Assembly (NCBI GenBank): GCA_964187785.1
Contig: OZ076409.1
Location: forward strand, 32,738,001-32,802,000
Direction of reading: 5' to 3'
DNA: 64,000 nucleotides
From: Amphiscolops sp. MND2022
Lineage: Eukaryota
Of the stretch, positions 20,961-48,573 are shown piece by piece; position 1 is the first letter of the stretch, and each line of letters opens with the position of its first letter. Below the pieces are notes generated by a model. It was not told where the DNA came from. It did not search any database and saw only the letters and a program-made list of their open reading frames with translations. The translations under genes and the position numbers were made by a program.

Positions 20961-21034
20961 TTGATATTGGACGGTTCTATTTTAGTCTTATTCCTATTTG
21001 CTCTGTTTAAAGCACTGGTGTTAAACGAAAGACG

Positions 21035-21215: not shown

Positions 21216-21230
21216 GTTAAAAAATGAACG

Positions 21231-23870: not shown

Positions 23871-24251
23871 ATGCCTTGCCACAAACTATATTTGAACTTA
23901 CTGTGGGTAGTTCCACAAGAGCTTGAAAACCTCGATATTGAGGTAGTTACCATCACAAAAATATATTGGACCTTCAGAGAAAGTGTCATCAGAGTTTGTT
24001 TCTATGGAATCCAATCTAACCGCTCTCATCCGCTACCCGTGAAAAAGACCCCAACGAAATTCAACATACACCTTCACCCACAGTCACAAAGTTTCAAGGA
24101 CTTGAACGAAGTGCTGGGCTACCATGCTCTGGACAACAAGGATCCACTACTGGAAGAACTGCTGAGCTTTATGTCCAGCATCAAGAAGATTTCTTTGGAA
24201 AAACTCTTTGACTCGTCTTCGGACGAATCATTCTTTGGCATGGAATTCTAA
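23871..24251 (+). CDS. Unknown 126-aa protein, paralogue of 19658-20010
   Basis: Clean ATG ORF; protein-level similarity to the 19.7 kb ORF. Confidence 0.7.
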   Translation: MPCHKLYLNLLWVVPQELENLDIEVVTITKIYWTFRESVIRVCFYGIQSNRSHPLPVKKTPTKFNIHLHPQSQSFKDLNEVLGYHALDNKDPLLEELLSFMSSIKKISLEKLFDSSSDESFFGMEF

Positions 24252-26539: not shown

Positions 26540-26995
26540 AAATAAACTAAATGAAATAGCAACGCCCGGTGCTTAGAACACTGCTATTCAATAATCTAAA
26601 TGAAATAGCAACGCCCGGTGCTTAGAACACTGCTATTAAATAATCTAAATGAAATAGCAACGCCCGGTGCTTAGAACACTGCTGTTAAATAATCTAAATG
26701 AAATAGCAACGCCCGGTGCTTAGAACACTGCTATTAAATAAACTAAATGAAATAGCAACGCTCGGTGCTTAGAACACTGCTATTAAATAATCTAAATGAA
26801 ATAGCAACGCCCGGTGCTTAGAACACTGCTATCGAATAAACTAAATGAAATAGCAACGCCTGGTGCTGAGAACACTGCTATTAAATAATCTAAATGAAAT
26901 AGCAACGCCCGGTGCTTAGAACACTGCTATCGAATAAACTAAATGAAATAGCAACGCCCGGTGCTGAGAACACTACTATTAAATAAACTAAATAA
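26540..26995 (+). repeat. Tandem array, 49-bp unit x9, core AGCAACGCCCGGTGCT
   Basis: Near-identical unit ctaaatgaaatagcaacgcccggtgcttagaacactgctattaaataat. Confidence 0.95.
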
Positions 26996-27075
26996 AAAAA
27001 TGTCGGGCTAAAAAGAAAGTTGTGATAAAAAATCACAACCTTGAAACACTGACACCCATTATCATGTATTTTTAG

Positions 27076-27153
27076 AGAGGCTCTCAGTTAGGGGATCACA
27101 TAGTGTCGCCCATAACAAGACCCACGCCGGGAACGTGGCCTCTGGAGGGTCTC
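27076..27153 (-). ncRNA. HDV-like (CPEB3-type) self-cleaving ribozyme candidate
   Basis: GAGACCC(P1) TCC AGAGGCC(P2) ACG(P3) TTCCCGG(L3) CGT GGGTCTT(P1', G1.U wobble) G [P4] CTGA(J4/2, catalytic C) GAGCCTCT(P2', one bulged A). Confidence 0.8.
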
Positions 27154-28214
27154 AAAATCTAATTTACAAAGTCTACTACGAAAATATGCTAACTACCAGA
27201 GCTTCCGGAATTTTATTTGGGATCAAACATTTCAATTAATTTAAACCAAAATCAATTAATGGACAAATGGAAACTTGCAAATTAACTATCAATTATCTCG
27301 CAATTGTTGAAGCAATAATTTCGGTATTAAGGCTTTCATCCCAAGATAGTCTATTCATCTTCAAAGATTTCGAGTTTCATTGGAAATAAACTTATCTAAA
27401 ACCGTCCATCTAAAGAACTTTTGCATTTAATTAGAGGTCAGAATCATTTTTTCCGTTTTTTCATCAAATTTTCAGTCAATAAACTACCTTTTGACCTCCC
27501 TAAAATCAATTAATTGCACCCTAATAATTGCAAATAAATAGTTGCCAGTTAATAAAACGATGAGATAATCAAAGAAGAATTGAAATGTTTTATGATGAAG
27601 GAAATTATATTCTTGAAAAGTTGATTCTGCTGTACAGTGTATTGGCGATCGAATGAATTCGATGTACGATGAGAGAAATGAAATGCTAATTATGAAGGAA
27701 ATGATGCTGCTGAAAAGATGATTCTGCTGTACAGTGCATTGGCGATCGAATGAATTAGAATGTAAGAATGAAGTACATATAAGAATGTGATTAGAATTTC
27801 GTAATTCTGTTTGCGAACCATGCCGGGACTGAACGAAATTTTGTGACGTCATCGTTAAAACGGTTAATTCTTTTTCGATTCAAAATGGTGATAAATGCAA
27901 GAAACTTTGCTAAAGCTATATAATAGAGTGTGTGCATGCATAAATCTATTGGAAGATCAATAAATTATTGCAAAAAATAATTCCATAGAAAGCTTTTGAC
28001 TTTGAATATTTTATTGGCAGAAAGCAATAAAATAATTTATCATACCATGTAAATAATTTCTCCATTTTGAGACGTTCTGTTTACTGCTATTAAATAAACT
28101 GAAGGAAAGAGCAACGACCGGTGCTGAGAACACTGCTAATAAACAGCGTCCGGTTGATATATATGATGCAAAACTCAAAAATTATATTCATATTAATTGT
28201 GCGGGGGGATCCAC

Positions 28215-28870
28215 ATACTTTTTCCATTCTCAAGCCCTTGAAAAAATGATTGGACTAATTCCAAAAAAATAAACTGAATAAAATTAGTTAGACTTTCAGT
28301 TTATTGTTTTAGGTAATTTCTTTTTCGTTTCATTTTACGTTTTGGCTTGGAGGGGGGGGCTTGGTGTAAGAATAATACTTTATGAATGCATTAAACTGCT
28401 AAAGCATACATATTTCCTCCATTCTCAAGCCTTTCTAAAATTGATTGGACTTATTCCAAAAAGAATAAACTGAATAAAATTAGTTAGACTTCCAGTTTAT
28501 TGTGTTAGGTATTTTTTTCGTTTCATTTTCTTTTTTGGCATGGGGGGGTTCGTGTAAATATAATACTTCAAGAATGCAGTAAACTGCTAAAGCCTACATA
28601 TTTCCTCCATTCTCAAGCCTTTGTAAAATTGATTGGACATATTCCAAAAAGTAAATTAAATAAATTATTGAGAGTTTCATGAGTTTAATTTTATTGTGTT
28701 AGGTAATTTCTTTTTCGTTTCATTTTATTTTTTTTGGCCTCGCGGGGGGGGGGGGTGGTTGTTGTGTTGAATAAATTACTTTATAACTGCATAAAAATTC
28801 GCCAATGCATATACAATTTTTCCATTCTAAAATTTTCTTGAAATTGGTTGAATTTATTCCAAAAAACTAT
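28215..28870 (+). repeat. Degenerate ~190-bp tandem repeat x3-4
   Basis: tccattctcaagcc...gattggac..attccaaaaa at about 28223, 28418, 28606, 28821. Confidence 0.8.
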
Positions 28871-30679
28871 GTGAAATATCAAGACTTCAAGTTAATCATG
28901 TTCACTAATTCCCATTTTTTTTCGTTTTATCCATGTTGCGTGTGGGGGGATTCGTTGATAAAATAATGCGTGAAAATTACTTAAAAAACTTTTACTACAA
29001 AAGGTAGAACATTGTGTGAAAATTCTTCATTAATACTCGTGGATGGTTCACAGTGATATCTGATACGCGTCGTACGTTCAATTTATCTAGTGACGTCATT
29101 TTGAACTATTTGGAATGCTTTCCAACGGTATTCGCTTCGCGAGTTAATACATTGTTCCTTTGTCGAAAGAAGCACTTATGACACACTCGCTCACCGCGAC
29201 AAGGTCGGACATAGAATTGACCTCGGAATTGATCAATCAGAGAGCAGCATCACTTTTCGCTCACTTGGTCGAACTTACACAGGAATTCGTTCAACCAATC
29301 AAAAACGCCGGATTCGTGACACTCTTTCGCCGCTGGTCGGCGCTATGAAAATGTATAAAATCTAACATTTTGTCACTTGGTAGGACAAAGTCTTAAAATA
29401 ATCCTGAGGCCATTTGAAGCATTTTCCACTATTCAGAATAGCGTGTTCGACCAATTATGACCGACGAAGTGCGGGTTCGACCAAGTGCTAGGCAAAAAAC
29501 GGCCAAATGTCCGACCAAGTGCGGATTCTCAAAGACAAACAGAGAGAGAGAGAGAATAACTTGAATTCTGGTTAATGATCTTAAAATTTGATGAATTCTT
29601 TTTGCTCCATAATCGATTTCTCAAACTATTTCTCCGATTTTCTGTTACAAACACAAACTGCTTTTATTGATAAAAGGAATGTTCACTCTTTTTACCATAA
29701 TCCATGCTACCACGATCAATTTAAGTTCAATAATAATCCCACACACACGATTAACAAAATTTCAAATAAATGAGTTGAGTATTGTAAAAAAAGTATAATA
29801 TTGTTTTTATATTTAGCAAATAGCTGAAGGTTTTGGAACTCAAATAATTCAGATAATCTCCTAGTCTATCTCAATAAAGAGAATAGTATATCAAAAACTG
29901 TTAAATTTTTAGCTTTCAAAACAATTTGTGGGGAATATCAATGTGGTAAGAAGATCGAGAACCTCAAACACTTGTAACAGTCTCTTGATTATTATCTCTA
30001 GGTGTATGTTTTTATTCTGGCTGACGTTTTTGAAAACCTCTGAAGACTGGCCTACGGGAGTTTAAGCTGGGAATCTATACTTTTTAAGTGTCTCGATTTA
30101 CATGGAAAGCAATGCTAAAAACACTAAAGATTCAACTTGATTCTTAAGTGAACAAAACCACCTCATTGATACCCCAAACAGTTAAGTATCCAAAATCTTT
30201 AGTAGTTGAAAACAACAACGTCTGTGAATTCTATTCCGAAATGTTTCCATAACACTCCTGTAGTCAGTCTAGGATTATCACTGTATACGAACTGGTTATT
30301 CCTGCATTTGGTTCTTTAAGAAATGCCGCTGAAATTAAAACAGGCTCTAAAACACTCAAGAGTCATTCAGAGACTGTGGTATCCGAAATCATCAACAATT
30401 CGAATGAAATGTCTTCCATTTCAACCGGCATCAACAAAAAAGTGTGCCACTCAAAGCCGTTTATTCACCGTCACTGTTCAATCGAAAAAACAAGCTGTAT
30501 ACAGGAAGAAGTTTTTGAGAGGTCCGAAAACGATTAAAAGTAGTTAGTTCACTTCGAAAAGTGCAAGTTTAAATGCGGGAAACCTAAGTGCAAATTTATA
30601 CCTTTCCAAAGGGCTCTGATGACAAAAATTGAACCGCCTGTACAGGAGACAGTAGTTTCCACCCACTCAACCTGATGTA

Positions 30680-31303
30680 GTGTATGAGAAAACGTCAATA
30701 GCCAGAATAACATCTACTCCAAAACGTTTTTATAACAATCCAGACTCATGTTACACCGTTGACATATGTGCCAAAGGTACATGTGTGCATGATTTCTCAG
30801 CTCTCAACACAAACTATGTCATCTATTTTTCCATCGAAAGGGACCAAAAACTGTATCACTCAAAGTCGTTTACCCAGTGTCACTGTTCAATCGAAGAAAA
30901 GGTACCAGCTCGGAAAACTATTTCAAGAAACAATCAAATGGGAATGAAGAGTACCATCTATTCCACATTTTTTCAACACAACGGTTACTATGAAAATAGT
31001 CATGCAGAGTTCAAACAATATTGCAATCATTTTTTCTCACGTAAAGAAGTTGAACAATTAAATGAGATACCGATTCGTTTAGAGATTTTATACATTTGTG
31101 CCGACATAATGGACCAGTTGAATGGAACCAATGATCCCATTTTGGGGAGCCGAGATTGTAACCTGACATTGATTGTTAACAATGTAGACGAAGAAGCTGA
31201 TTCATTAGTGAACATGCCGTGCACAGACCGATCTGTCGGTTCTTCGCTCTTTATAAGGGGTCCCCACTTTGCAGCTATTCAATTGGCGTTACGAAATCTG
31301 TAA
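30680..31303 (+). CDS. Unknown 207-codon ORF, possibly part of a decayed KH-domain gene extending to ~32500
   Basis: Long ORF in AT-rich DNA; partial duplicate at 30410-30490; a GRIIGKNGSILNKI (KH GxxG-like) fragment with a stop near 32410-32460. Confidence 0.3.
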   Translation: MYEKTSIARITSTPKRFYNNPDSCYTVDICAKGTCVHDFSALNTNYVIYFSIERDQKLYHSKSFTQCHCSIEEKVPARKTISRNNQMGMKSTIYSTFFQHNGYYENSHAEFKQYCNHFFSRKEVEQLNEIPIRLEILYICADIMDQLNGTNDPILGSRDCNLTLIVNNVDEEADSLVNMPCTDRSVGSSLFIRGPHFAAIQLALRNL

Positions 31304-32554
31304 CTTGAAAATAATTGCGAACCATTTTTGCATGCTCATAATCTCAACATGATGAAAAAGCTAAGCAGTGAATTTCGGTATTTTGTAAATGTGATGCACT
31401 ACAGCGCTGTTAAGAAGTAACACACGATAGGAGTTAAACAAGCCGAAAACAACTCAAAGTCGGCGATACAAATTCCAGAAGATGAAAAAACACTGAAAAG
31501 TAACACAGATTTTGGGGGTAATTTAAATGTAAATGCCCACACTAACCGAGAATGCTACCCGGGACAAACGAATAAAAAACAATTGTCAATCTCTCAAGCT
31601 CTCCACTACCAAAAAAGAACATCAAAGCTCATAGTATCATCTTTTCCAACCGCGTGTACGATACTCCACGAAGCTATTGCAACCTAAGAAGTCTAGTTAA
31701 TAGTCCCCAGCTGAAGACAGATTCGTTATGGTAATTAATGAGTCTTCCCGGATTATAAAGCTTAAAATACTAAAATACGAGAAAGAATTTATTGAAAATA
31801 AACCAGGAACTTTTAAACTTCGTGGAGCATACAGGTTTTTTTTAGTTCAAAACATCAAATTTCGTAGTAGTATCTATTCTAAAGCGCTTGTACAACACTC
31901 CAAAAACCTGTTAAACACTAGAACTTCTGATTCTGAGCCTTTCAGAAGCGAAAAATGACAGCCAGAAAAACTATTTCCAAGACAAAAGAGAAGTCAGCCA
32001 AAGAAAAAAAATGACGGAACAAGCTGGTTAATTTCAAGTACAATTGATAGAAACAATATTGCAGTAATTTCATGCCACGTAGAAAAATTGCACAATTTGC
32101 ATCTGATACCGCCATATTAACTACGTCGAGGTAATAAAACTGAAGAGGGAAAAAAGTAAAGATTTTAATCGAATCAAATCGGTACATGTGCAAGAGATTT
32201 TGAGTGCCTACTGGAGTCTTGGGTTAACCTCAACCCGATTCGTGAAGAGCAGAGATGTAATGTAAGGTCAACCAATACTGAGACCCCAGTATACACTCGT
32301 ACTGTGCAGGCTGGGTTAGGCCCCTCTTACCCAGTACATTGTGTCTACATCATGAGAGTAATGAACTTATCAAAGAGGAAATGAGAGGAAGACAAATTTT
32401 GCTCAAGGAACCGGAAGAATAATCGGCAAAAACGGAAGTATACTAAACAAAATCGCTTAATGCGACAAAGACAAACTATTCATCAAAGTGCAGCAAATAA
32501 GCAATCTTTTTTCATTCGAACATAGTAGGTCCCTTAAAAAATTACTCGAAACGA

Positions 32555-33060
32555 AGACATTTGGAGAGTTGAAGACAAATGAAAAGCTAAATTGCTGAAT
32601 ATAATCAACAATTTTGCAAAGCGACAGAACTTATCGCCCATAGAAGTACACTAATTTAAGCCAATTTGAGAGTTAAAGACAATCAAAAAACGAAAATGCT
32701 GGACATAATCAACAATTTTTCAATTTGACAGAACTTATCCGTTTTTGAAGTACACTAAAGTAAGCCTTTTCGAGAGTTAAAGACACAAATATTGGTAAAT
32801 TGCCGGATATAAAGAAGGATTTTTCAACCGGACATAAGTTCTCTCCTAGCTATGGATCTTGAAAGTAAACATTGCGAGAGATGAACACACAAACATTTGT
32901 AAAATGCAGGTTATAAACAATGGTTTTTCCTTCGAACATAAGTTACCTCCTATCGAAGGATCTCAAAAGTAACCATTTTGCGACCTAACGACACTAACAA
33001 TGGTAAAAAGCCAGATATTTACAACAATGTTCCAATCAGACGTAGAATTTTCGCTATTGT
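32555..33060 (+). repeat. Degenerate ~103-bp tandem repeat x~5
   Basis: gagagtt(g/a)aagaca... recurs at about 32565, 32668, 32772, 32876. Confidence 0.7.
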
Positions 33061-35271
33061 ATTGGTCAAAATTAACAGTTAGAGATACTAAATTTTCCTA
33101 AATGTTGGCAATAGTCATCAAAGTTTCAATCGGATAAAGTAGGTTCTTCATTATCTTTGAGAAATCTAAACAATTAATGATATCACAACTAACGTAAAAA
33201 GTACGCTTTTCCAATTCCTGATGTTTGAATGCGTGGGATTGAATTGGTATGAAGAATAATTTGAACTGAAAGAACAGATTGTCTACTAGATAGAGCTGTA
33301 TTCATATTAAACTCATCTGTGGTGTCGGAATATTTCTATTCAGGTGGTGACTGCCACTACTCGAATTTGTTGATGTGAAAACACAATCTAAACACAAGAG
33401 GTTTCAAACTCTAATAATACGACAGTGATCGGTTTGTTAGATGGTTATCTAGTTCAACAGTTAGGGTTGCAACAGTGACATTTTAAAATTGACAACACTT
33501 ACCATTTTTCCAGTTTCTTGTTTCCAGATTCCAAGATTTTAATTTTATTCAACGATTGCTCGGAAAAATGTTTTGGAATAGACACTCCACTGATTGTTGA
33601 TCGTTCGCATCAAAAGATCGTTTTGCTGGTTTAACTGAAATAGCTCATTCTGTCATTTTTTTTGGAACAATGGTTCAATTTCTTATTGAAAACCGACTTC
33701 ATCTTTCCCGGTCAATTGTGAAGCAAATTTCAAAGTTTTTAACATGAGAGATAGTTGTTCATTTTTGAACGAGAAATATTGAACGAGAAATATTGAACAG
33801 TCCAGAGAAATATGGCGAAAATTGAGTCTGCATCTCGAACCGGTTGCTGGTAATTGAAAGTTGTTGCTAAATCGCCTGCATCTGGGCGAAACATTTCTTT
33901 TGGGTTTCTGCTCTGACAATAAAATTGGATGGGATCCTCATTCAAAGAAATTTGGCCTCCTCTTTTCATTCAATCCAAGACGGCAATTATACTTTATTGA
34001 CTTGCCAATTCAAAGCCACTTGACAATTGTGAACAAAAACTCAACTGGCACAAGACAAATATATGGCTCGCATAAGCTCTGCTGAAATTAACCTTGAGTC
34101 AAATTTGGAGGTCCTTAAATTAGGGCCCACCAAGCTTCATTTTATGAAGGGGTCCTAAAAGTTGGTCCGTAGGGACCCCTAACACAGCTCTCCAATTTCG
34201 AAGAAAAATTATCCAATACCTCACCAAATGTATTTTTAAACTTTGAAGTGGGTCCCCCTCCTCAGAAAAAGGTCAAATTTCATATTGATAATGAATTACA
34301 GTAGTATCATTCACTAATGTTTCTTTGTATAACGTTGACAGCATAACAAAGCTTGCATTTGTGAACTTCGTTTTGTTTTCTAACAAGAATTTATGTAGTG
34401 GAAACGAAAAAAGTTGGTTTGCAGTTATATTTAAATTCATCTCAACCTCGGTAGGTCAGGGGTTGGAAACAACATTTTGATTCAACACGATTGTGTTGGG
34501 AAGTTAAAAATAATTTACAGGAAGGAATAAGAACACCGCTACCACTACATTTGGAGGAGCGCATATAACTATTCCTAATAATACTAAGCGTACATACAGA
34601 TAAGAAAGATGGAAATACAACCCTTCATATACAAGAATGTTGAGAAATTTGTACCAGTATTAGTCAATCCAGCTTTACAATTCAATTACAACAAAATTTC
34701 AAGGTTAGTATTTTCCAAACTTTTAGACATTCAAAGAATATACAACAGTGTCTATGCTTTTACATGTACTTTCGCGAAATTACTTCCTTTTAGGGATAGG
34801 TTCTAAAATTTCAGAGCAAGGACCCACTCCGTTGTGAACGAGGACCCACCCAGTTGAAAGGCCGGTGGGCTTTTTGTTCAAAATGCAAAAAGTGATCTGT
34901 CCTTCCTGGTATTTACACTACTCGATTGAAACAGAATAAAACTAAAAGATCAGAAATTTACAAAATTTCGACCTTCAAAATACGAAATTTTGATCAAACA
35001 TACGGTTTTTTTCACAACAGCAAAAGTTAAAGAACCTGGCAAAGCTGCAAAAATACACATCAAAATACAACGGAATGGAGCTTTAATTGCTTATAAAAAA
35101 CATTATATTAAGAATTTAGCAGATTTAGTCCTGAAATTATCCCTTTTTCTGAACGTAAATCAATCCAGCTACCCCAAAAATACCTGACAACCTTGCCTAT
35201 CAAGCGGCTTCAAGAAACGCGAAGCCGAAAAGCGTCCTTAATGCTACCAGGGTCATTAAGGTAACCCAAAC

Positions 35272-35756
35272 CAGGGGTTGCACTTAACTGAAAATTCGAT
35301 GATTGAAATTGCATGAGCAAGAAATAATCGCTAATTGCAAACGCACAATGTTAACAATTGCAATTGCAATTGCTTTTTAGTATCTAACAGAATATCAGAA
35401 TTTGACAATAAATCTGGTTTAAAAGCAGCTAGTGAGATATCTCGTACAAAAAACAAAACCAGAAAGAGAAAACATAAATTACACTCAGTGTGAAAAAATG
35501 CTTTGGAAGAAAGCACTGCAATACTCCAACAATATACAATTATAAAAAATGTTTTCGGTGTAATTCGAGGTGATAGCCAAAATTGCATTTTTTGTGGAAA
35601 AACCCAGGAAAATTGCAAAGTTGCACAAAATGTCGCACTAATTGATAATTGCCCTCAGTGTTGTTGATAATTGCTAATTGAAATTGCATGCCTCAAAGTC
35701 GCAATTAATTGCAATTGCATGCAATTAATTGCTGTTTGGTGAAAATGCTATCCCTG
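35272..35756. mobile_element. hAT-like MITE
   Basis: CAGGGGTTGCA ... TGCTATCCCTG; flanks ACCCAAAC / GCCCAAAA (6/8 match); subterminal AATTGC repeats. Confidence 0.6.
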
Positions 35757-36514
35757 GCCCAAAAAACCAAAAAAGTTGGAAAAAGGACGAATATAGAAAA
35801 TCAACCAAGCTTCCGGCGCAACTCAAAGATTTCAGACACGTCAGTTTTTCTCCCTCATTGATTGAGAGTAGTAGTACGTTGCATTTTATGTGGGGGGAGG
35901 GGTGTTGAGTGAGTAAACAAATATGGTAACAACAAAACTTTCTAAAACGTTACGTAGTAACTGCAACACGAACATGGTGTATTCGAACATGAAAATTCTC
36001 ACCGAAAGGCAAACAAAATCCGAATAACTTTTTTTACAACCTTGAAAATACGAGTTCCAGTAAATTTTTTCCATTCGTTTTCTAGGCCACAAAAAAACGT
36101 TCCTTCCCTTGGCGTGGTGGAAAGTAATAAAAATCGAGTGGTTTGTTAGGAATGCAAATGGAGGGATGAAGGGAAATCAAATCAATAAAAAGTCTTTTAT
36201 TCTAGCAACTTTGAAAAGAATGTGCTATTAGATTATTTTACCTTTTTTTGAAGTTTGATTGCGGTGGAACAAAATTCCTTGATATTGCCTTCATTTGCGT
36301 ATTGGAAACAGTTATAAGTAATCCAACCAATTTCTATGGAAATAATCCAAGTTTCTTTTTACACCGAATTTTCACATTCTAGAAAATGAAAAACGACCTA
36401 AAATGATTGGAAAAAGGTTTTTGAAATTTCGGGAAAGTGTTAAATTTTCAAGGAAAAAGCCCTTAATTGCGTTCTAGTTTGATACATGTCCCGCAAAAGT
36501 GGAATATGATCACT

Positions 36515-36915
36515 TGGTGTAAATAGTATTTTGGGTAAAATAGTCAATTAGTGTAAACTTGTCAAAGACTGTAGTAATCCATTAGTGTAGTGGTGCAGCC
36601 AAGTGTAATATGAACGCGGTGAATTCCAGTCAAAATGCGTAGTTAGTAAATGGTGTAAAACAGTCTCAAAATATACAAGCTAATTTAGTAAGGTGTAAGT
36701 TAGTCAAAAATTGGTTAAATTTCACTTTTGAGGAGTATTCAAGTATAAAACTACCAAAAAGTGTAAATTAGTCAAAGTTTGACTATTTTACAGCAATTTA
36801 ATAACTACTTCAAACACACTAATTTACATTGAATAGTTGCTTGGCGTTTTTTTACTTTGACTAAATTACACATTACCTTTGACTGAATTACATACATACA
36901 GTAAAATTTACATTG
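36515..36915. repeat. Foldback-like array of short GTGTAAATTAGTCAAA-type units, forward then inverted about 36775
   Basis: gtgtaaa.t.gtcaaa repeats left of gtcaaagtttgac; tttgacta.attacac repeats to the right. Confidence 0.6.
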
Positions 36916-37113
36916 GATGACACATGCATGCAAAAGAATTCTAGTCATTCAGTGCATCTAACTAATTATATCGATTTAGAGTTTAATGATTTGAACTAAT
37001 TGCCTACTGGTCATGCCAGTAAGCAAAATGTTTAGAACTAAACTGGACTATGTGTTCATTTTCCAACACACTACAGGGTTGAAGTATTGTTACTTGATGT
37101 ATTTACAATTTTG

Positions 37114-37191
37114 GAGACCCTTCAGAGGCCACGTTCTCGGCGTGGGTCTTGTTATGGGCGACATTATGTGATCCACTAACTAAGAGCCTCT
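37114..37191 (+). ncRNA. HDV-like (CPEB3-type) self-cleaving ribozyme candidate, second copy
   Basis: GAGACCC TTC AGAGGCC ACG TTCTCGG CGT GGGTCTT G TTATGGGCGACATTATGTGATCCACTAA CTAA GAGCCTCT; same fold as 27076-27153. Confidence 0.8.
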
Positions 37192-37796
37192 TTAAAACTG
37201 AATTATACTGGGCAAAATTAATTTTTCGTTGAGATTTGTAATCTTAGCAGTTATTTGTGTCCGACAATGTTGATGGAAAACAGTTTCACAAAACAAAAAT
37301 TGTTGACGAGGAGGTTTAAGTAGTCACAAAAATACAAATAACAATTTTACCGGGTTATCAGTATTCTTTTTATGTTAAATGAAAGTAATTTCAGTTTTAT
37401 GTTATTTGAAGCTAAAAGGCTTGAAAACCAAATTTTTGCATAACTACAGTGATACTAATTGTATATACCACATTTACAACCCCCACACAGCCTCCGTTAC
37501 ACCTTGATACGAATGACCTACAGCCCAATGATACTAACGAAATGAGGATAGAACGAAGTGAACGACAAGCAGCGCGTCTTCATCGAAATATGACAGGAGA
37601 TACCTTTCAGCTACGAAACTGACTTTGACAACACTTAATCAAACCCAACTGATCATCACAGTAAGCAAACATTCAAACATAAACTTTATGGTTTGGATTT
37701 TTGTGATTATTTAAACATCAACGCATTGGAGTGAAGCATTGTAATAATACACGCGTGATTATAATGCTGTTTAAAATGGAATCGTTACGTAGAACT

Positions 37797-40700
37797 GTTA
37801 AATATATTATACAATTCAACTACAAAATTTTACACAATTCCAGTTGAACTGTGAGAGAAACGAAAGATAAATTTGTGTGAGTTTAAATATGTTTGCGATG
37901 CAACGGCATGTTGGGGATGGTGGCGCAGTTAATACTTCCCTTGGGTATGAAGTGAAGCTAGCACCGTTGTCTACCGCCGAATCGATTCCCTAACATACAC
38001 TGCTCGGTGACTCTATACAGACCACTCTGTATTACCCTGTAGTACAAAGCATCGCTACTTGGCAAAACTTCCAATACTTTGTTATTCTTTCTGAAAGTTA
38101 TTCATAATCTTTGAACACCTCCAAAACTAGTTTCAACATCAAACCTTTAACAGTTTTGAAATTAATTAAATTGAAATCAAAAATATGATTTTCTTCGCAG
38201 AAAAAACTAAACTAATTTTTTTAAGCTCTTTTGAACTAAGTGCAAACTGATCATGACAGTAAGCACAATTTTCGACCGTTACTTTTTTTGTTATTATAAT
38301 AGCTAATTATAACTGAAAAATTACAATGTCAATTACCAGAGTGTCGGTCTTTTCTTTGATTCATCACTTGGAAACTCAAATTTACTGGGTTTCGAAATTC
38401 AAAGGAATAAAGGTGGACTCTGTAATATTTTGAAAATAGGTTCAAAAGATAGCCGAGCCTTTGATCGAGGCCCTAAAAGCCCTAAAAAATCAAAATGGTT
38501 GTTTATCTGAGTTTCCCATTGCTTAGATATTGGAATTGTGTCTGCGGTAAAATATTTGATGTTTCCCAGATCAAAGTAAAACTGAAAAAACCCATAGGAG
38601 GTGCTCGAAGTCTTGAGAAGTTGTTAAGCCTGGCGAGCTCAGAAAGATCGTTTAGGACTCAAAAATCTCAAAACCTAGTTTCGACAAAAAATTCGGCTCG
38701 AAACAACTAAATATAACAAAAATGCTCAGCTGGAATTAGCTCGACTAAACTGACCACTTCCCCTGGGGCGTCGCAAACAAGAGGTGCAGGGCCTCGTGTG
38801 TTCTCGACGTCTCGAGTGAGACTTACGACACAGTGAGAATGATCTATAGAGATGAGGTATGTTTTTCATTCTCTGTTTTTTCTGAGCTTTTTATTGTTGA
38901 CGTTTTGTCTCAAAAACGACTGTTCACAGTTATCCTGGTGCATGCTTACTTTGAGGGGACCAGTACTCAGTCCGAGCTGGATGTGTTCGCCTTTTGGCAA
39001 TTGCACAAAATGCATATAAATACTTTGCATCAAAAAAAATTTAATTGAATGTCTGCATGCTTTTCGTCTTTTCTAATGAATCTGTGCTTGCACCTATTAA
39101 GTCGTCAACAAAAACTCTGTTGTCAATCTGAAAACCTCCCCCCTTATCCTTTTTTCAGGTGGTATGGAAAAAAGGCACCTGATTGTTTTTTGTGCTTCAA
39201 AACCTTCTAGAATTATTAATATTCATTCATGTCAGTATCAACATATCCAAATTCTCGCCGAAAAAGGCGGTCGACAAGAATTACTCTTCTGAACAATTCT
39301 TCAATTCTACATTTGATTTCTTGTTGTTTCGAGCCCTCTCTCAATCATAGTGTCAATTCGTCTTTATCTTCCCCGACATTCTCTACACTTCGCTTACAAT
39401 GCCACCAAGTTAGTTGTACTCTTTTGTTTTTTCTTCTTTTGAGCAACAAAATTGAATTTTTTCCGACGAAAAATTGGTAGTTGATTGGGAAACTATGTGC
39501 TTAAGGGAAAAATAGTGTTTCAACACTGTCACGTAAAGACATTACGGATAACTAATGCTCTGTAACAGAATTTGAAAAAGAAAGGGGTCAAACTAGTGAT
39601 TGGTCTGGCTCGACGTAATCAACTTCTTCCAAAGTCGAACAAAAGGGTCGATAAAGTTTTGCAGAAACAGCTCGAAAAGTGCAAATCTTTGAACGTTCAC
39701 AAGATGTGTACCAGAGGCGTCGACATGACAGACCATTTTCACTACACTGAGCAGATTTTGGAACAAACGTTGCACGATGTTCTTCAATTTGCGTCTTCAC
39801 AAAACAACTAGTAGCTAAATTACAGTTTTCATTTAACACTACTATTCTTCAAGAAAAGGCTCTTTTTCTGAATTTCTATCTAGTTTTGTATATAATCACT
39901 TACTACTTTGTTTTACGTTATAACTGTCAACAACCCCTTATCAAGGCAAAAATACGAGAAAAATGAAAAATGCTCAAAGAAGGTTTCATCGTCTTATTCT
40001 GGTTGGAATTTAAACTTAAACATGGTTGCATGGTCTCGACTCACAGGAAAACTTAGTTTCAGCAATATTTTTCAATTTAGAAAATTGAAATTTCAGTTGT
40101 CAATGGCTATCATGAATACCAATTGTCAAATAAATCATTGGAAAGACAACAAAGATCCTTCAGACTATTTGTTTTCCAAAAAAGAAAAAATCCACTCATT
40201 GGGCAAAATTTATGAAAAACTCTAAATTCACAAGGAACACTGTTCTGTTGCAAAATTTAGGCTCATTTTTCAACATTTTGTAGTCGGCGCTTCATGAAGT
40301 GAACGCGATTAATATAGTGGCTTTTCTTTTTTCTTCTTCTAGCCACACGAGCTAACCAAAATATTTCCTAAAAGTTCTACAAAAAATTATTGCACCAAAC
40401 TGCACTCTTTGGCCTAGCGAACTGAACCAAAATGGTTTTACCTGTTTTTCCGCGTAACATACCATACCGAACGAGACCAAAGAGTCCCCTTTTCAATTTT
40501 TTTCGGCACTGCGAGACGTTTTTTTTCGGAATTTTTTTCACCAAAGAGTCCCCCTGCATTTTTTTGATGTTTTGCGACAGAATGGATGTTGGAAAATCCC
40601 AAAGGGTTCCCCCTTTCAGTTTTTTCGGCATTGTGAGATTTTTTCCCGAAAATGATTTTTTTTCAATTTTTTCATGTTTTGCGACCGAGTGGATGTTGAA

Positions 40701-43660
40701 AAACCTCAAAGGGTCCCCTTTAAGGGGATATATTCAGTTAAATATATTATACAATTCAACTACAAATTTTTACACAATTCCAGTTGAACTGTGAGAGAAA
40801 CGAAAGATAAATTTGTGTGAGTTTAAATATGTTTGCGATGCAACGGCATGTTGGGGATGGTGGCGCAGTTAATACTTCCTTTGGGTATGAAGTGAAGCTA
40901 GCACCGTTGTCTACCGCCGAATCGATTCCCTAACATACACTGCTCGGTGACTCTATACAGACCACTCTGTATTACCCTGTAGTACAAAGCATCGCTACTT
41001 GGCAAAACTTCCAATACTTTGTTATTCTTTCTGAAAGTTATTCATAATCTTTGAACACCTCCAAAACTAGTTTCAACATCAAACCTTTAACAGTTTTGAA
41101 ATTAATTAAATTGAAATCAAAAATATGATTTTCTTCGCAGAAAAAACTAAACTAATTTTTTTAAGCTCTTTTGAACTAAGTGCAAACTGATCATGACAGT
41201 AAGCACAATTTTCGACCGTTACTTTTTTTGTTATTATAATAGCTAATTATAACTGAAAAATTACAATGTCAATTACCAGAGTGTCGGTCTTTTCTTTGAT
41301 TCATCACTTGGAAACTCAAATTTACTGGGTTTCGAAATTCAAAGGAATAAAGGTGGACTCTGTAATATTTTGAAAATAGGTTCAAAAGATAGCCGAGCCT
41401 TTGATCGAGGCCCTAAAAGCCCTAAAAAATCAAAATGGTTGTTTATCTGAGTTTCCCATTGCTTAGATATTGGAATTGTGTCTGCGGTAAAATATTTGAT
41501 GTTTCCCAGATCAAAGTAAAACTGAAAAAACCCATAGGAGGTGCTCGAAGTCTTGAGAAGTTGTTAAGCCTGGCGAGCTCAGAAAGATCGTTTAGGACTC
41601 AAAAATCTCAAAACCTAGTTTCGACAAAAAATTCGGCTCGAAACAACTAAATATAACAAAAATGCTCAGCTGGAATTAGCTCGACTAAATTGACCACTTC
41701 CCCTGGGGCGTCGCAAACAAGAGGTGCAGGGCCTCGTGTGTTCTCGACGTCTCGAGTGAGACTTACGACACAGTGAGAATGATCTATAGAGATGAGGTAT
41801 GTTTTTCATTCTCTGTTTTTTCTGAGCTTTTTATTGTTGACGTTTTGTCTCAAAAACGACTGTTCACAGTTATCCTGGTGCATGCTTACTTTGAGGGGAC
41901 CAGTACTCAGTCCGAGCTGGATGTGTTCGCCTTTTGGCAATTGCACAAAATGCATATAAATACTTTGCATCAAAAAAAATTTAATTGAATGTCTGCATGC
42001 TTTTCGTCTTTTCTAATGAATCTGTGCTTGCACCTATTAAGTCGTCAACAAAAACTCTGTTGTCAATCTGAAAACCTCCCCCCTTATCCTTTTTTCAGGT
42101 GGTATGGAAAAAAGGCACCTGATTGTTTTTTGTGCTTCAAAACCTTCTAGAATTATTAATATTCATTCATGTCAGTATCAACATATCCAAATTCTCGCCG
42201 AAAAAGGCGGTCGACAAGAATTACTCTTCTGAACAATTCTTCAATTCTACACTTGATTTCTTGTTGTTTCGAGCCCTCTCTCAATCATAGTGTCAATTCG
42301 TCTTTATCTTCCCCGACATTCTCTACACTTCGCTTACAATGCCACCAAGTTAGTTGTACTCTTTTGTTTTTTCTTCTTTTGAGCAACAAAATTGAATTTT
42401 TTCCGACGAAAAATTGGTAGTTGATTGGGAAACTATGTGCTTAAGGGAAAAATAGTGTTTCAACACTGTCACGTAAAGACATTACGGATAACTAATGCTC
42501 TGTAACAGAATTTGAAAAAGAAAGGGGTCAAACTAGTGATTGGTCTGGCTCGACGTAATCAACTTCTTCCAAAGTCGAACAAAAGGGTCGATAAAGTTTT
42601 GCAGAAACAGCTCGAAAAGTGCAAATCTTTGAACGTTCACAAGATGTGTACCAGAGGCGTCGACATGACAGACCATTTTCACTACACTGAGCAGATTTTG
42701 GAACAAACGTTGCACGATGTTCTTCAATTTGCGTCTTCACAAAACAACTAGTAGCTAAATTACAGTTTTCATTTAACACTACTATTCTTCAAGAAAAGGC
42801 TCTTTTTCTGAATTTCTATCTAGTTTTGTATATAATCACTTACTACTTTGTTTTACGTTATAACTGTCAACAACCCCTTATCAAGGCAAAAATACGAGAA
42901 AAATGAAAAATGCTCAAAGAAGGTTTCATCGTCTTATTCTGGTTGGAATTTAAACTTAAACATGGTTGCATGGTCTCGACTCACAGGAAAACTTAGTTTC
43001 AGCAATATTTTTCAATTTAGAAAATTGAAATTTCAGTTGTCAATGGCTATCATGAATACCAATTGTCAAATAAATCATTGGAAAGACAACAAAGATCCTT
43101 CAGACTATTTGTTTTCCAAAAAAGAAAAAATCCACTCATTGGGCAAAATTTATGAAAAACTCTAAATTCACAAGGAACACTGTTCTGTTGCAAAATTTAG
43201 GCTCATTTTTCAACATTTTGTAGTCGGCGCTTCATGAAGTGAACGCGATTAATATAGTGGCTTTTCTTTTTTCTTCTTCTAGCCACACGAGCTAACCAAA
43301 ATATTTCCTAAAAGTTCTACAAAAAATTATTGCACCAAACTGCACTCTTTGGCCTAGCGAACTGAACCAAAATGGTTTTACCTGTTTTTCCGCGTAACAT
43401 ACCATACCGAACGAGACCAAAGAGTCCCCTTTTCAATTTTTTTCGGCACTGCGAGACGTTTTTTTTCGGAATTTTTTTCACCAAAGAGTCCCCCTGCATT
43501 TTTTTGATGTTTTGCGACAGAATGGATGTTGGAAAATCCCAAAGGGTTCCCCCTTTCAGTTTTTTCGGCATTGTGAGATTTTTTCCCGAAAATGATTTTT
43601 TTTTCAATTTTTTCATGTTTTGCGACCGAGTGGATGTTGAAAAACCTCAAAGGGTCCCCC
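37797..43660 (+). repeat. Recent tandem duplication, period 2940 bp (37797-40720 and 40737-43660)
   Basis: ORF track repeats at offset 2940; only a handful of substitutions and a poly-T length difference seen; novel filler at the junction. Confidence 0.97.
39480..39780 (+). pseudogene. piggyBac-like transposase remnant (duplicated at +2940)
   Basis: ITDN*CSV (DN..S motif) followed by G..RRN and RGVDMTDH (GGVDxxDQ-like), broken by stops and frameshifts. Confidence 0.4.
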
Positions 43661-43881
43661 TTTCAGTTTTCCGGCATTGTGAGACTTTAGCGCGCCAGGG
43701 GCTTGCGCTAGCGGGCCCCGGCGCGCCACTCGGTCCATTTTTTTAATAGGTAATTTTTTCAAAAAAAAATTCGAAAAATTTTCGATTTTCGAGTACTGTA
43801 AAAGAATACTTGACACTTGGAAATCCTTTTGCTATTTTTGAGCCTTAGATATGGCGCCTACTTGGGCCGGTCCCGGCTTGT
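43316..43881 (+). mobile_element. Non-autonomous Helitron/Helentron-like repeat with internal subrepeats (3'-truncated copy at 40376-40720)
   Basis: Internal caaag(a/g)gtcccc repeats; GC-rich hairpin near 43690-43727; 3' hairpin GCCGGTCCCGGC followed by TTGT. Left boundary uncertain. Confidence 0.5.
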
Positions 43882-44904
43882 TGTTTTTCACCTTGACTTA
43901 ATGTAAGACTAAGATTAGCAGGTAGAGTAGCTCTTGTTTAACCTGTTTTACCACTCGACAATTTAGTACTATGCAAGATTCCGAATATCAACCATATAAA
44001 ACAAATTGTTCTTTCCACACCGAAAAGAAATTTTGCATCGGAATGTATAATTCAAAAAAATTATTTCAATTTAAAAAACGCCTCAAAAAAGGTATCCAAT
44101 CTGCTGGTCAATGCTGGAGCGTCTTGAACACAAAATGATTGTGCTTTGCAGCGGTTTAACCTTATCATTTTCTGATTGAAATTGTTGTTGATGGAAGCAA
44201 TGATTTACATATTCACACAGCTTTTACTGACGTGGAACGTATATTTGCCTATGAGACACATTTTGGAGCCCAATCCTAATAAGGGAAGTAAAAAATCAGC
44301 AACAAACGACAAGTGGAAAATTGAACAGTCTGTCTCCTACCGCTACCTTTACTGCAATCAATCAGTGCTCAAGTTAAAGTTGATACAGCAAAAAATGCTC
44401 CGACGACGACTACAAGCAAGAGGAAGAAGGAGAAAGCACTGACGAGGACGACCAAAGTGTTTTTGACTTGACAGCTTCTGGTCCGCCACAACTGCCCCGT
44501 CAATACGCTTTTGATTTAGTGTTGGAAACGTAGTAGGACTGGAAAGAAACTCATTGTACACAATCAGGTTGTTTGAGTCTGGAATTGATATGAAAATTCA
44601 TTGATTGGTTTGGAAAGCACGCTAGTGCCCATTACTGAGAATCATTTGGGAACGTAAGAGTACGAAGAATCTAAACGATCCTATTAGTGTATATCCAACA
44701 CTACAGATAGCAATGCAGAAACTACAGCATCGGCGGATGTCGACGACGACAAAGATTGTCGCCAACTAAAAGAAAAGAAGAAACTGAAGAGGGTAAAGCT
44801 GATGACTGGTCCAGCAGCAGCAGCAGTGAAATTGAATGAGTGAGTGAGTGAACGACTCTCATTCAATCAAATTCTTTTTTACAATCCTGTTCCTCGAAAC
44901 AAGG

Positions 44905-45850
44905 ACTGCCTTTTATATTGATCTACTGTCTAATGCTAGTTTGGACTTTCATCCATTTATTACGTTGGCATTTTTTCGAACTGAATGTCAAATCCAATTA
45001 ATTTGAGCAGAGGAAGTGAATGGGAAGTTGCACCCACAGACATTTCATTCACAAACCGAGTATACAATGTCACCGACGGCGAACTCATTCTTGACCATAT
45101 TCCTACACCGGTTCTTCAACGATATCGTAGTGTTGTGAACAAACCAGATGCCTTCAATAAGGAAATTATAAAAAAGTATTCGGTTCTTCAACGATATCGT
45201 GTTGTTGTGAACAAACCAGATGCCTTCAATAAGGAAATTATAAAAAGGTATTTTTGAATCATTGTCGTATTTTTAGCATTCCGAAGGTTTGCTACCTTGA
45301 AATTCGTCAAATTGTTGACGCAATGATTTCTCAAATAGCTATTATTACAAACATGGAGAGAACAATCACTTTTGCCTACAACGAGGAAACTTTGAACCTT
45401 TCATTCAGCTCCGAAAGAACTACAGAAGGACAGAGCCGCGTGAACTTCAAAATCCAAAGTCAAGAACTGTCTCAATCTTTGGAGTGGGAACAGATGCTGT
45501 GTACTGTGAAGACAACCAAATCATTGTTCCCTACCATTGTGATATTGCACGTTTTCACACAAATTTTGTATACAGTGATATTGTAGACTCAAGTAATGTG
45601 AGCAACGTGAAGAATCAACTTTTACGCGCCTTCACATTTCGTCAACTAACGAAAAATGAGGATTTGGTTATGATATACTCTTACGACAACCGAGCTTTCT
45701 CTAACTTGCAGAATCGCAATGTTTGTTTGTACAATTTCAATTGTGTACAGATTGAAATTCGAGACATGGACTGAAAATTATTTCCTTTTACCAGTTTGGG
45801 TCTTGTAGTTTAAATTTTACAATTTCGCAAAAAAACTGCCTGTAGTTTTT
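44905..45850 (+). pseudogene. Polinton minor capsid protein (penton), frameshifted
   Basis: LLSNASLDFHP...SNPINLSRGSEWEVAPTDISF..YNV N-terminal motif; FVYSDIV..VSNVKNQLLR..IEIRD..LQFRK C-terminal motif; 72-bp internal duplication at 45109/45181. Confidence 0.85.
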
Positions 45851-45929
45851 GAAATAGGTAGGAGAGTAAAAGAATGTTTTTACAAACAATGTTCTTTCTA
45901 TAAACAATTACAAAACAATTGAGACAATT

Positions 45930-46318
45930 CAAATATTGTTCGCTACATTAGATGTTTCATCAAACAAGTTCCATGCAAAATAAATACAATAGAGACCACA
46001 CAATGAATCGACCTGCTTCATTGAAGTGTTCGAAGGAAGGAAAAAGGTTTTCTTCTATTCTGGTGGTGGTAGTCGGGTAAACAACATTGGGTACTGAATC
46101 AAACTTGTTGCTTCCGGGGAACCTCCAAAATAATGAAAACTATTGGATAAGTTGATCAACGTTTTCCCATGTCCGTCATTGTCTGTAGTGGTGTTTACAA
46201 TTTGAAAATGGTCTTTTGGCATTGGGAAATTGCAAGCATTGGGGCCGAAGCAACACAAGTATTGACACTTTAATGCGGGAATATTCGAAATGACTTGTAG
46301 AAAGGCTGCACTATCCAT
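45930..46318 (-). pseudogene. Polinton adenain-like cysteine protease, frameshifted
   Basis: QIVNT...GH(W)..YF(D)S-like segment, then QVDSLCGLYCIYFA catalytic Cys motif near 46020-45975. Confidence 0.8.
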
Positions 46319-47580
46319 GTTTCAACACTTCTCCTGTATGATCAATTTGACCTTTCGTAAATCGTTCTCCCAGCACAAACAGCTCCAAAAGCGTGCTAGT
46401 GTTAGTCGCAAACTCGCGCTCGTGCCGTATTAGTGCTCCCACATATTCGGGGTAGTAAATTTCTTGATTGCACTGTTGTGTGGAGACAAGGTCGAAAACT
46501 AAATAATTATGATTTTCATAAGTGTCCAACTTGATTCATTGACCGTCTTGATCAAATAGTACGTTTTGAACAGTCTTGAAGTAAAGTTGAGAATTGAAAC
46601 TTGTGCTGTATTCCACCACTGGTACACCCTCTGCAAAACTCGCACTTTCCTCCAATTGTCTTCGTGGAAAGCAAGCGGAGTGTCTGTCCACCGTCCAGTA
46701 AACTGATTGTTGGGACACATGGCCAGTACCATGCGTCTGCATTGAAAACATTTTCACGAATAAAATGACTTTGGTCCTTTGGAACTACAAATGTCTTGCT
46801 GCGAACTTCAAAAAAATTGTATCTAGCAGGCCACTTGAGCAGAGATCGTTGTAAATTGACCTGACAGTTTTCAGCAACAATGTAGTAACGAGCAAAAATT
46901 GACACTCGTCTACTTTTTGGAGTGAAGGCAGGGTTGGTGACAGCACTTTCCAGCAAGTGATCAGGCTTGTTTCTCGTCAGTCGAATTCGCATAGAACAAT
47001 TGAGAATGAGAAGTTGATCACCAGACTTGAAATCCACCGCCAGTTTTTGAAGCGGATACTAGGGTCCATGTTTCTCGGTGGGCATGCATATCACTGGTAG
47101 CGGGCTCGAAATGAAAGCCCTGTCTAGTGAGATTTGTTGTGGCACAGCCCTGTGTGTTGGACAGTTCAGTTTTAACAAAAGCTCTCTGTGCATACAAATT
47201 AAAGGACGTGTGTACAATTTCATTGTTGAATAAAATGTCACAATTGGAAAAGAAGGAGTGTAGTGTGTTGTTGATGAAGCTGACTTTGTCGATTGCTTTG
47301 GCTACAGTGTTCCCCCAGCCAATTTCGGTATTGCCATTTGCGCCTTTTCCAATTTTTGACTCCAACGTCAATTCAAGGCTTTGCAAATGCAAGTAAATGA
47401 TTCGATCAGTTGTGAGTGCAAACTCAAAAACTGGTGCATCGTGTGCGGTGACTGGCAACGTTTCTTGTTCAAAGAAATTCTCAAAAGACACAAACACTTC
47501 TGGTTTAGAAAAAATATCTAGGCTAGAGTAGTTTGCCGGTTTAGGTATTATGTGCGCTGCCGCTGCAGTTGTCGTCATTG
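46311..47580 (-). pseudogene. Polinton major capsid protein (double jelly-roll), frameshifted
   Basis: SLDIFSKP...FEF...YLHL...FINNTLHSFFSNCDILFNNEIV..NLYAQRAFVKTEL; IRLTRN; YLVFDL; over several frames. Confidence 0.9.
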
Positions 47581-47639
47581 TTTTGAAATTGACCGTCAAC
47601 GCAAGTTTTAAAAAATGTCAATCTTTTCAAGTTTTTGAG

Positions 47640-48290
47640 CCTTACTCAAAATCACATGTTTTTTTAACCTTCAACTGTACCATACCCTTTAAGTGATTCA
47701 CACGGTCGTTGAGAGTTTTTACAAAGTCTGGCAACTTGTCAATACAGCGCCACATCCATTCCTCTTGGAGATACCGAACAATTCGGGCCTTCAAAGTTCA
47801 AATGGCAGGCCCATCAAACGCTGCTTTTCTACCGCTGAACAAATGTTTTTGGTTTATTCCAACAGTTTTAGAAAACTTGAAAAATTCTCCCTCAACTTCT
47901 CGACCTTGATCTGTCCAAGTTTTGTTGGGATGTACTGTTGGACATTTATTTAACATGGTAACTAGACCATCTTTCACTGCAGCAGATGTCAGTCGCTTCA
48001 GTGGTTCCACTCTCAAGTAGCGTGACTATACACCCTAGTGAAAAATTTACACCATCGTTTGGCTTGGCAATTTTGTCGACGTAAGCAACGTCTATGCACC
48101 AAATGTAGTTAATGTCGAAAGCAAGTGTCGTCAATAAAAGATGAGATTTACGCTGGGGAATGCAAAATTTGGTGTAGGAGCTTTTATCTTGCAAAAAGAT
48201 AAACTTTTTTGATGACAATTTGGTAGCTTTTTGAAGGGATTGGCGCGATCCATACTCCGAGAAGCCACTCTTCAAAACTTTCTGCAACAA
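47640..48290 (-). pseudogene. Polinton rve-type integrase, frameshifted
   Basis: YGS..L..FLQ...YT...INYIWCIDVAYV...NDG; VEPLK; WTDQGRE; KAAF..RTLKARI motifs. Confidence 0.9.
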
Positions 48291-48306
48291 CGTTTTTTTG
48301 TCTTTT

Positions 48307-48573
48307 TCAAAATTGATTATTGCATCCTTGACTAAATACCATTCCTTTTGTTCTTTTCTTTGCTGAACGTTGCCCTGCTGCTGCTACTGTTCGGGAATTT
48401 TGCAATCTATATAAAAATGTGCTGAGAGGAAAGTCTGTGTCGGAACTTTTCAGACTAAATGTACCTTCTTTTGTCAGTTTTAGTTTCGGATTAGACAAAA
48501 TTTTGTCGTATAAGGAAGCGCTGCGTCTTTGAGTCGTTTCGCTTCCACCCACATCCAACAAATATGGCTCCAT
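48307..48573 (-). CDS. Polinton accessory ORF, unknown function
   Basis: 88-aa ATG ORF directly upstream of and co-oriented with the integrase. Confidence 0.35.
   Translation of the reverse strand: MEPYLLDVGGSETTQRRSASLYDKILSNPKLKLTKEGTFSLKSSDTDFPLSTFLYRLQNSRTVAAAGQRSAKKRTKGMVFSQGCNNQF

Follow-up and report, generated by a model that had tools for sequence, protein, structure and literature searches.

A sequence with the fold of an HDV-like ribozyme on the sense strand of a host intron raises the question of what maintains it, the host gene or a mobile element. The ribozyme is located at positions 37114..37191 (+ strand) of a 64,000-nt stretch (C1:32738001-32802000; hereafter the window, whose numbering is used below) in a eukaryotic assembly of 1.07 Gb. 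The original prediction placed it on the sense strand of an SLC7A intron, and this placement holds, as judged by the homology of the SLC7A14-like exons on either side. One exon ends at window position -21,743, and the next is located at 54161..54334 (+; tblastn, end approximate; Pfam AA_permease_2). The two exons are in frame, and the intron of ~75.9 kb between them, with GT-AG ends, is confirmed as a homology-based prediction. Its part in the window (1..54160, +; 75.9 kb in total) contains all ribozyme-bearing elements of the window.

The intron holds three ribozyme copies amid many repeats. The window copy studied here is located 17 kb ahead of the next SLC7A14-like exon. A second copy (26998..27153, -; ribozyme 27153-27076 plus a hairpin-ACA tail) is antisense to the host gene, and a third, at window position -14,744, is in the sense orientation.

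The predicted HDV-like ribozyme in the window

The HDV-like fold proposed for this sequence is upheld: in the window, an HDV-like descriptor picks out this copy and the one at 27 kb, and 100 shuffles gave no site. We assign the copy to type I of the family on the basis of the descriptor, covariation across types, and the copy's own changes at motif positions 51, 62, and 69. P1 (37114-37120/37144-37150) has 7/7 pairs formed and ends in the pair G1-U37, where 6-7 bp with G1-Y are expected of an HDV-like ribozyme. J1/2 (37121-37123) leads into P2, in which 37124-37130 pair with 37184 and 37186-37191. P2 thus comprises 6 bp plus one pair beyond the bulged base 37185, at least 5 bp being expected. 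P3 (37131-37133/37141-37143) closes L3 (37134-37140), which carries U21, C25, and G26, and a single P1.1 pair is formed by 37136 and 37151. P4 spans 37152-37178. The predicted catalytic C (C67) is located at 37180, and the predicted cleavage site lies between 37113 and 37114. J4/2 conforms to C-N-R-A, as CUAA in the window copy and as CUGA in 115 of 127 modules.

With its nested double pseudoknot, 7-bp P1 with G1-Y, and 3-bp P3, the fold resembles CPEB3 (RF00622) and the R2, RTE, and L1Tc ribozymes. The 7-nt L3, the C-G P1.1 pair, and the C-N-R-A of J4/2 are shared with HDV-like ribozymes in general (PMC6326823, in part). The sequence features of the class in that source and in PMC3774820, which treats their variability (both in part), are all present except for the second P1.1 C-G pair of the PMC6326823 descriptor, which is absent. 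Unlike known HDV-like ribozymes, the module has a bulged P2 base, a fixed hairpin-ACA tail, and no Rfam match at gathering score, and the window as a whole has none at that score either.

Behind the ribozyme, the window module continues into a conserved tail (37192..37269, +). It is composed of an A-rich linker (37192-37208), in which a candidate H box has been lost, a hairpin (37210-37262), and the trinucleotide ACA (37264-37266).

Decay of the window copy

Selection for activity had been suggested from the differences between the window copy and the copy at 27 kb. As described, there are exactly five, at motif positions 9 (J1/2), 24 (the variable L3 base), 51 and 62 (P4), and 69 (CUAA vs CUGA); P1, P2, P3, and C67 are identical between the two copies, and the flanks have diverged strongly. 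The conclusion drawn from them does not follow. The window copy departs from the commonest family sequence at positions 51, 62, and 69, while positions 9 and 24 are changes of the 27-kb lineage. The chance that five random differences all miss the 36 stem and catalytic positions is p=0.04; for the three copy-specific changes it is p=0.15. One of the three, at position 62, breaks a G-C pair of P4 and is shared with two siblings. Together, the two P4 changes weaken P4 from -7.0 to -3.9 kcal/mol.

Sibling loci give the same picture. Thirty were collected via the downstream flank, and the collection is therefore unbiased with respect to the core; 28 were used, and L081 and L094, whose 5' half is deleted, were dropped. 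In these siblings, P1, P2, and P3 are changed in 32/980 cells, compared with 25/867 in J1/2 and P4 (p=0.69), and rare substitutions are about as dense in the core (64/2,183) as in the flanks (237/9,320; p=0.30). The catalytic C is mutated in 2/28. Changes thus fall in stems, loops, and flanks alike, the very pattern that the original prediction had set against selection. The unique changes of the window copy (core 2/78 vs flanks 18/334, p=0.39) are likewise not significantly depleted in the core. Selection on the fold does act, on the transposon lineages (see below), but the five differences do not demonstrate it.

Damage to the window copy extends beyond P4. The -1 base is G instead of U (1/127 distinct modules), ANANNA is lost from the linker, and the tail hairpin has a folding energy of -15.2 kcal/mol (z -1.6), compared with -23.3 kcal/mol (z -4.4) in the sibling L025. 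We also considered a uniquely inhibitory hairpin formed through the -1 G and dropped it (-4.2 kcal/mol here vs -2.1 to -5.6 kcal/mol in 17 siblings).

The suggested parallel with the CPEB3 ribozyme is not borne out, as the window copy arrived with a transposon, one of three such insertions in this repeat-filled intron. CPEB3 is a host locus conserved for >100 My (PMC8233481, in part); the sequence here is a high-copy repeat in a transposon with a neutral pattern of change, not a single host locus under purifying selection. We are highly confident that the window copy is a passenger, and it is likely a decaying one without host function. Since P1, P2, P3, and C67 are intact, it may still cut the host intron. 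For the SLC7A14-like gene itself, the finding is an ordinary one.

The ribozyme family

A genome search returned 1,072 candidates, of which the best 40 were scored; the 29 other copies retrieved all share one 78-nt sequence. The first 38 nt of the motif have 154 exact matches in the genome. For the P3-L3 active-site core, with two positions left free, the count is 1,094, compared with 0 for the reversed control; only some tens of these sites were assigned to elements. Type II (170 candidates) was reached through a degenerate copy close to one of five further transposase loci, and types III and IV were found through the core-pattern list.

Covariation was analyzed in 27 sequences, leaving out L247 and L248, in which P1 is degenerate. 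Ten of 29 pairs change on both sides (P1 2, P2 1, P4 7), a count that is inflated by relatedness. Paired cells amount to 92.7%, compared with 33-56% in slid controls, and 1/500 shuffles reaches ten two-sided pairs, a comparison that kin sequences can win without structure. The G1-Y pair is G-U in 17 sequences and G-C in 10, the P1 pair 2-36 is A-U in 22 and G-C in 5, and the P2 pair 11-78 is A-U in 13 and G-C in 10, while the single P1.1 pair C23-G38 is present in 27/27. Mean identity of J1/2 is 46%, and both free L3 positions and the P2 bulge vary. For many rows, P3, most of L3, and three P1 bases were preset by the search pattern; although the invariance of P3 is partly a product of this, the 3-bp P3 is also present in type II, which was found by BLAST. 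As read from these alignments, the compensatory changes in P1, P2, and P4 among the diverged types indicate that selection acts on the lineages, and intact family members are, in our judgment, very probably active ribozymes.

Six type III copies match Rfam CPEB3_ribozyme weakly (E 0.19-3.1), and one type I module gave nothing in Rfam to E 10. When type I is folded as a nested structure, a competing fold is preferred (z -0.8). The long ribozyme patterns have 0 matches in viral contigs and metagenomes; an 18-letter pattern has 37 viral matches, 0/37 with the full fold. The one metagenome transposase locus found (6.7 kb) is without the P3/L3 core.

Transposons carrying the module

The window module is carried by a non-autonomous TIR transposon of family A (36481..38036, +), delimited by homology to siblings from -633 to +923 and by the termini. 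The left TIR lacks its first 6 bp, and the right TIR was not found in the window. Siblings begin sharply at the terminus, whose reverse complement forms the other end of the element. The complete small copies (four of the 30 loci and the third intron copy) have both TIRs and a 2-bp TSD in 5/5 cases, and the 2-bp TSD is present in 6/6 family A elements with both ends, including a full relative of 25.0 kb (C3:77398338-77423374; L039, L040, L065, L110) with the same TIRs and a TA TSD. The frames of this relative encode a transposase and SET, zinc-finger, and JmjC-like proteins, and 1.28 kb separate its ribozyme from the left end. Family A modules point inward from the left TIR, at a distance of 0.7-1.3 kb, and are antisense to the transposase.

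The family A transposase matches Pfam BRCT only, with no DDE match, and the C(2)C and H(3-4)H motifs are not evident in it by eye. A database protein 95% identical to it has a structural model (pLDDT 87.5) and 74 homologues, none with a match to Pfam Plavaka. The best structural match of the model is BbRAGL (Z 11.3, rmsd 3.9, 265 residues), and RAG1 (Z 10.8) and HzTransib (Z 8.6) match as well, with BRCT-domain rows at like Z. Foldseek gave no match at E 0.001, a sequence search of the PDB gave nothing significant, and Atlas leads score <0.8. The modelled transposase is a candidate for a RAG/Transib-type fold. The CA..TG termini and the 2-bp TSD of family A agree with the CMCT clade, for which CA..TG TIRs and a TSD of 2-5 bp are expected, and are similar to those of PlavakaB (PMC12730594, in part). 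Relatives of the transposase occupy 1,300 candidate places in the genome, the best 62 of which were scored.

The second module lies in a giant element of family B (~34.7 kb; 1..29540, onward to window -5,150, -), delimited by its ends, its ORFs, and a C5 copy to which the main collinear blocks are 93-98% identical. The ends are TGT..ACA with a subterminal inverted repeat, and the module is near one end and points inward. The cargo comprises SET and JmjC genes (Pfam), a C2H2 finger, and an ORF which, from its motifs, we take to be recombinase-like; no transposase was found in the element. Family B also contains repeat arrays with periods of 49-77 bp that share one short motif (4999-5425, 15143-15923, 21027-21223, 22075-22402, and 26533-26997).

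A second family of 40-kb elements has TIRs and a 2-bp TSD in 3/3 copies, a transposase ~30% identical to that of family A, and one or two ribozymes. An EnSpm-like element, with a match to Transposase_21 (E 4e-4, below the Pfam cut-off) and a SET gene, is likewise a carrier: in 6/6 close copies, the transposase is followed by an array of 3-7 or more modules on the sense strand. Thus, the module sits in DNA transposons wherever element ends were mapped in the assembly. The 38/38 intact and 2 truncated copies among 40 sampled type I copies share their upstream flank with a known family context, and 0/40 (drawn from the exact-match list) have a unique one. Like the TIRs of the mapped carriers, this does not match the arrangement of a retrotransposon 5' ribozyme, in which a unique flank precedes G1 and the body of the retroelement follows. 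Within ~20 kb of five other transposase loci, four have no ribozyme and the fifth has a degenerate one, indicating that the carriers do not all have one. An apparent case of identical cores in elements with 28% identical transposases was dropped, as the C7 transposase was not shown to be in the same element.

Several further arrangements were noted. Family C elements (L033/L034, L037/L038, L107, L109) have two or three modules in mixed orientation within ~20 kb; one end was mapped, and the other was looked for and not found. BRCT-bearing TIR transposons of 25-40 kb carry SET, JmjC, zinc-finger, and recombinase-like cargo, with many frames near 1,000 aa open. Several tandem SET and recombinase-like genes surround one module at L046, L063, and L064, and one 1,055-aa frame near a module is a SET/recombinase-like fusion.

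The hairpin-ACA tail

Homology between families spans about -3 to +153..158 from G1, which coincides with the predicted RNA ends. Mean identity of the tail is 61%, yet one common hairpin is formed. Its folding z-scores are -1.6 to -4.4 in 9/10 cases and -0.4 in one. Nine of 12 pairs changed on both sides, which 0/500 shuffles equal, the structure being derived from the same alignment in which the pairs are counted. The hairpin is 50-56 nt long, and we accept it as the 55-70 nt hairpin followed by ACA that is expected of an H/ACA RNA.

ACA is present behind the hairpin in 20/20 aligned tails and in 19/23 tail clusters; three of the other four are truncated or rearranged, and one has ACC. The C and the A of ACA are kept in 118 and 117 of 122, and the following positions are free. 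From the upper stem to ACA, where ~14-16 nt are expected of an H/ACA RNA, the distance is 15 nt in 18/20 aligned tails, and 14 and 16 nt once each, while the 5' arm varies between 10 and 14 nt. Single-sequence folding gives a stem-to-box distance of 13-15 nt in 13/18 clusters, although the 13-15 nt rule of H/ACA RNAs concerns the target uridine, not the stem base (PMC5207380, in part). ANANNA is found in 108/127 modules, in two registers and in an A-rich linker where chance matches are frequent; the 19/127 without it include type III and the window copy. The middle of the hairpin is mostly paired, and differs between families, so an open pseudouridylation pocket, which is expected of guide RNAs only, is not evident. 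No Rfam snoRNA match was obtained at the module, and no poly(A) or simple-repeat tail was seen after it. By sequence and predicted structure, the geometry of the tail matches that of an H/ACA 3' domain (PMC5207380, PMC5519232, both in part).

A putative transposon RNA and alternative explanations

A cut-and-paste transposon has no RNA intermediate; therefore, a selected ribozyme inside it needs another purpose. We propose, giving it about an even chance, that the module, borne by giant DNA transposons and by shorter elements derived from them through deletion, specifies a transposon RNA of ~155 nt whose 5' end is made by the ribozyme and whose 3' end is set by the hairpin-ACA. An RNA polymerase II transcript crossing the sense strand of the module, whether from the element, from host read-through, or from an intron, would fold into the double pseudoknot and be cut at G1, with C67 as the general acid, leaving a 5'-OH end. 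Such an end resists 5' exonucleases. The downstream RNA would be trimmed to ~3 nt past ACA, and the H/ACA core proteins dyskerin, Nop10, Nhp2, and Gar1 would bind the tail hairpin, as on telomerase RNA and AluACA RNAs, the ribozyme taking the place of the H/ACA 5' hairpin. This would give a stable, uncapped nuclear RNA required by the transposon, and tandem arrays would yield several such RNAs per transcript. The use of the RNA is a guess; most likely, it would help, together with the SET and JmjC genes, to counter silencing. The full reading, which we consider rather less likely than not, is that giant animal DNA transposons with at least two transposase types encode a ribozyme-snoRNA chimera that recruits host dyskerin, in ~1,000 cassettes, and that acts against silencing together with SET/JmjC. 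Some cassettes would then be self-processing tandem arrays, and cut-and-paste elements would have gained a small nuclear RNA of their own.

Much of the placement can also be read as a means of breaking transcripts, with the ribozyme cutting read-through RNA that enters or leaves the transposon so that no long antisense or fold-back RNA, and hence no silencing trigger, arises. No H/ACA particle would form, and the hairpin would merely insulate folding or bind an element-encoded protein. The inward, antisense position of the family A module near the left TIR, the inward module near one end of family B, the EnSpm-like arrays 3' of the transposase, and the weak H box and pocket are consistent with such cutting. 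It leaves unexplained why ACA and the 14-16 nt length of the 3' arm are fixed, as well as outward-pointing copies and arrays where one cut would suffice, and we regard both the cutting and the role it assigns to the hairpin as rather doubtful. The role ascribed to known mobile HDV-like ribozymes is to generate the 5' ends of retrotransposons (PMC6765202, in part). The module could accordingly be an ancient short retroposon with a ribozyme at its head, comparable to R2 SIDEs or trypanosomatid SIDER/NARTc, that inserted into DNA transposons and travels with them. Homology between families begins at the cleavage site and ends ~155 nt on, and the module is found in unrelated carriers at varied places and orientations, as this origin would have it. 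The absence of a unique upstream flank from the 40 sampled type I copies, the absence of a poly(A) or simple-repeat tail, and the compensatory change that went on after the lineages split make it improbable, and the accompanying idea that the hairpin is a binding site for a LINE reverse transcriptase is improbable to the same degree. Rare retroposition could nevertheless be the route of the module between carriers.

Two further possibilities are much weaker. Retention of the intronic copy by the host, which would use it, as with CPEB3, to cleave the SLC7A14-like pre-mRNA and so adjust the output of the gene, would agree with the sense orientation ahead of the next exon, with the intact P1, P2, P3, and C67, and with the non-significant shortage of unique core changes. 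It is very unlikely in view of the truncated transposon around the copy, the neutral decay of the siblings, and the damage to P4, the -1 base, the linker, and the tail hairpin. Conservation at the DNA level, with the module serving as a promoter or protein-binding hallmark and its RNA no longer cleaving, is suggested by the type I core, identical in several flank families with loop positions included, by the competing nested fold, and by Pr77, which has such a double role (PMC3383444, in part). The identical cores were partly picked by the searches, and wider sampling reveals that positions in J1/2 and L3 are free to vary, that stem pairs change on both sides, and that some G-U pairs can form on one strand only; we consider this explanation equally remote.

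Comparison with known systems

Unlike CPEB3 and the R2, RTE, and L1Tc ribozymes, the module is internal to DNA transposons and shares common upstream flanks, being neither a retroelement 5' end nor a single conserved host locus. Pr77 of the trypanosomatid L1Tc/ingi/SIDER elements is likewise an HDV-like ribozyme of ~77 nt common to differing mobile elements (PMC4035085, in part), but it forms a retroelement 5' terminus, whereas the mapped carriers here have TIRs and 2-bp TSDs.

Like AluACA RNAs and the H/ACA domain of telomerase RNA, the putative transposon RNA has an atypical 5' domain, a single-stranded hinge, a 3' hairpin (55-70 nt in those RNAs), and ACA near the 3' end, and AluACA RNAs also arise from an intronic repeat (PMC5207380, in part). 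It differs from them in that its 5' end would be made by predicted self-cleavage, its H box is imperfect, and its apical loops of 3-8 nt are without an evident CAB box; the RNA is represented here by genomic sequence.

Family A shares with PlavakaB the CA..TG termini, the 2-bp TSD, a probable RAG/Transib-like fold, and the chromatin-enzyme cargo; PlavakaB ends in CATCA..TGATG and PlavakaA in TGT..ACA, which resemble families A and B, respectively (PMC12730594, in part). Unlike PlavakaB, family A is found in an animal, ends in CATTA..TAATG, has a C-terminal BRCT domain, and carries SET/JmjC rather than TET/JBP. The carriers here have a ribozyme as cargo, while ribozymes are unmentioned in the main text of the PlavakaB paper (PMC12730594, in part). 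The BRCT-bearing giant TIR family is possibly an animal counterpart of fungal PlavakaB.

Tandem module arrays occur at C1:63167225-63172416 and at L262, L263, and L264, with periods of ~0.25, 0.5, 1.0, 1.4, and 1.7 kb. Successive cuts in such arrays could give monomers able to circularise. Animal non-LTR retrozymes similarly have tandem ribozyme units and possible monomer release, which the 247-bp arrays fit (PMC7761336, in part), but those units are hammerheads in retroelements, whereas most copies here are single and in DNA transposons.

Among the open papers searched, no title or beginning of an abstract describes a ribozyme in a DNA transposon, Repbase, subscription papers, and three key HDV-like surveys being outside this scope. 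The papers retrieved for HDV-like ribozymes and DNA transposons all concern, by title, R2 or retrotransposons, and hammerheads are the only ribozymes mentioned for Terminons (PMC6431247, in part). The same literature contained no description of giant SET/JmjC transposons with a ribozyme or of EnSpm with a ribozyme, nor of a ribozyme-H/ACA chimera, although the slashed spelling "H/ACA" may escape a text search. If H/ACA proteins do bind, the module would add a new pathway to H/ACA RNA biogenesis and a new device to the repertoire of DNA transposons. It is short and directly testable for cleavage, the 155-nt RNA, and ACA dependence.

Other repeats in the intron

A broken Polinton-like remnant is located in the same SLC7A14-like intron (44985-52181). 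One of its frames (47021-47617) matches double-jelly-roll capsid-like clusters with a score of 0.97; the other frames have no Pfam match, and their gene labels are presumptive. Positions 37797-40721 and 40737-43662 form a tandem duplication with 99.8% identity over 2.9 kb that overlaps the 3' part of the ribozyme-bearing element, and is either a recent event or an assembly artefact. A motif of ~25 nt, possibly a transposase or promoter site, is repeated near the ribozyme (36990-37032, 37645-37669, and 38230-38272) and once, in a sibling (L025:1954-2016), forms a perfect palindrome.
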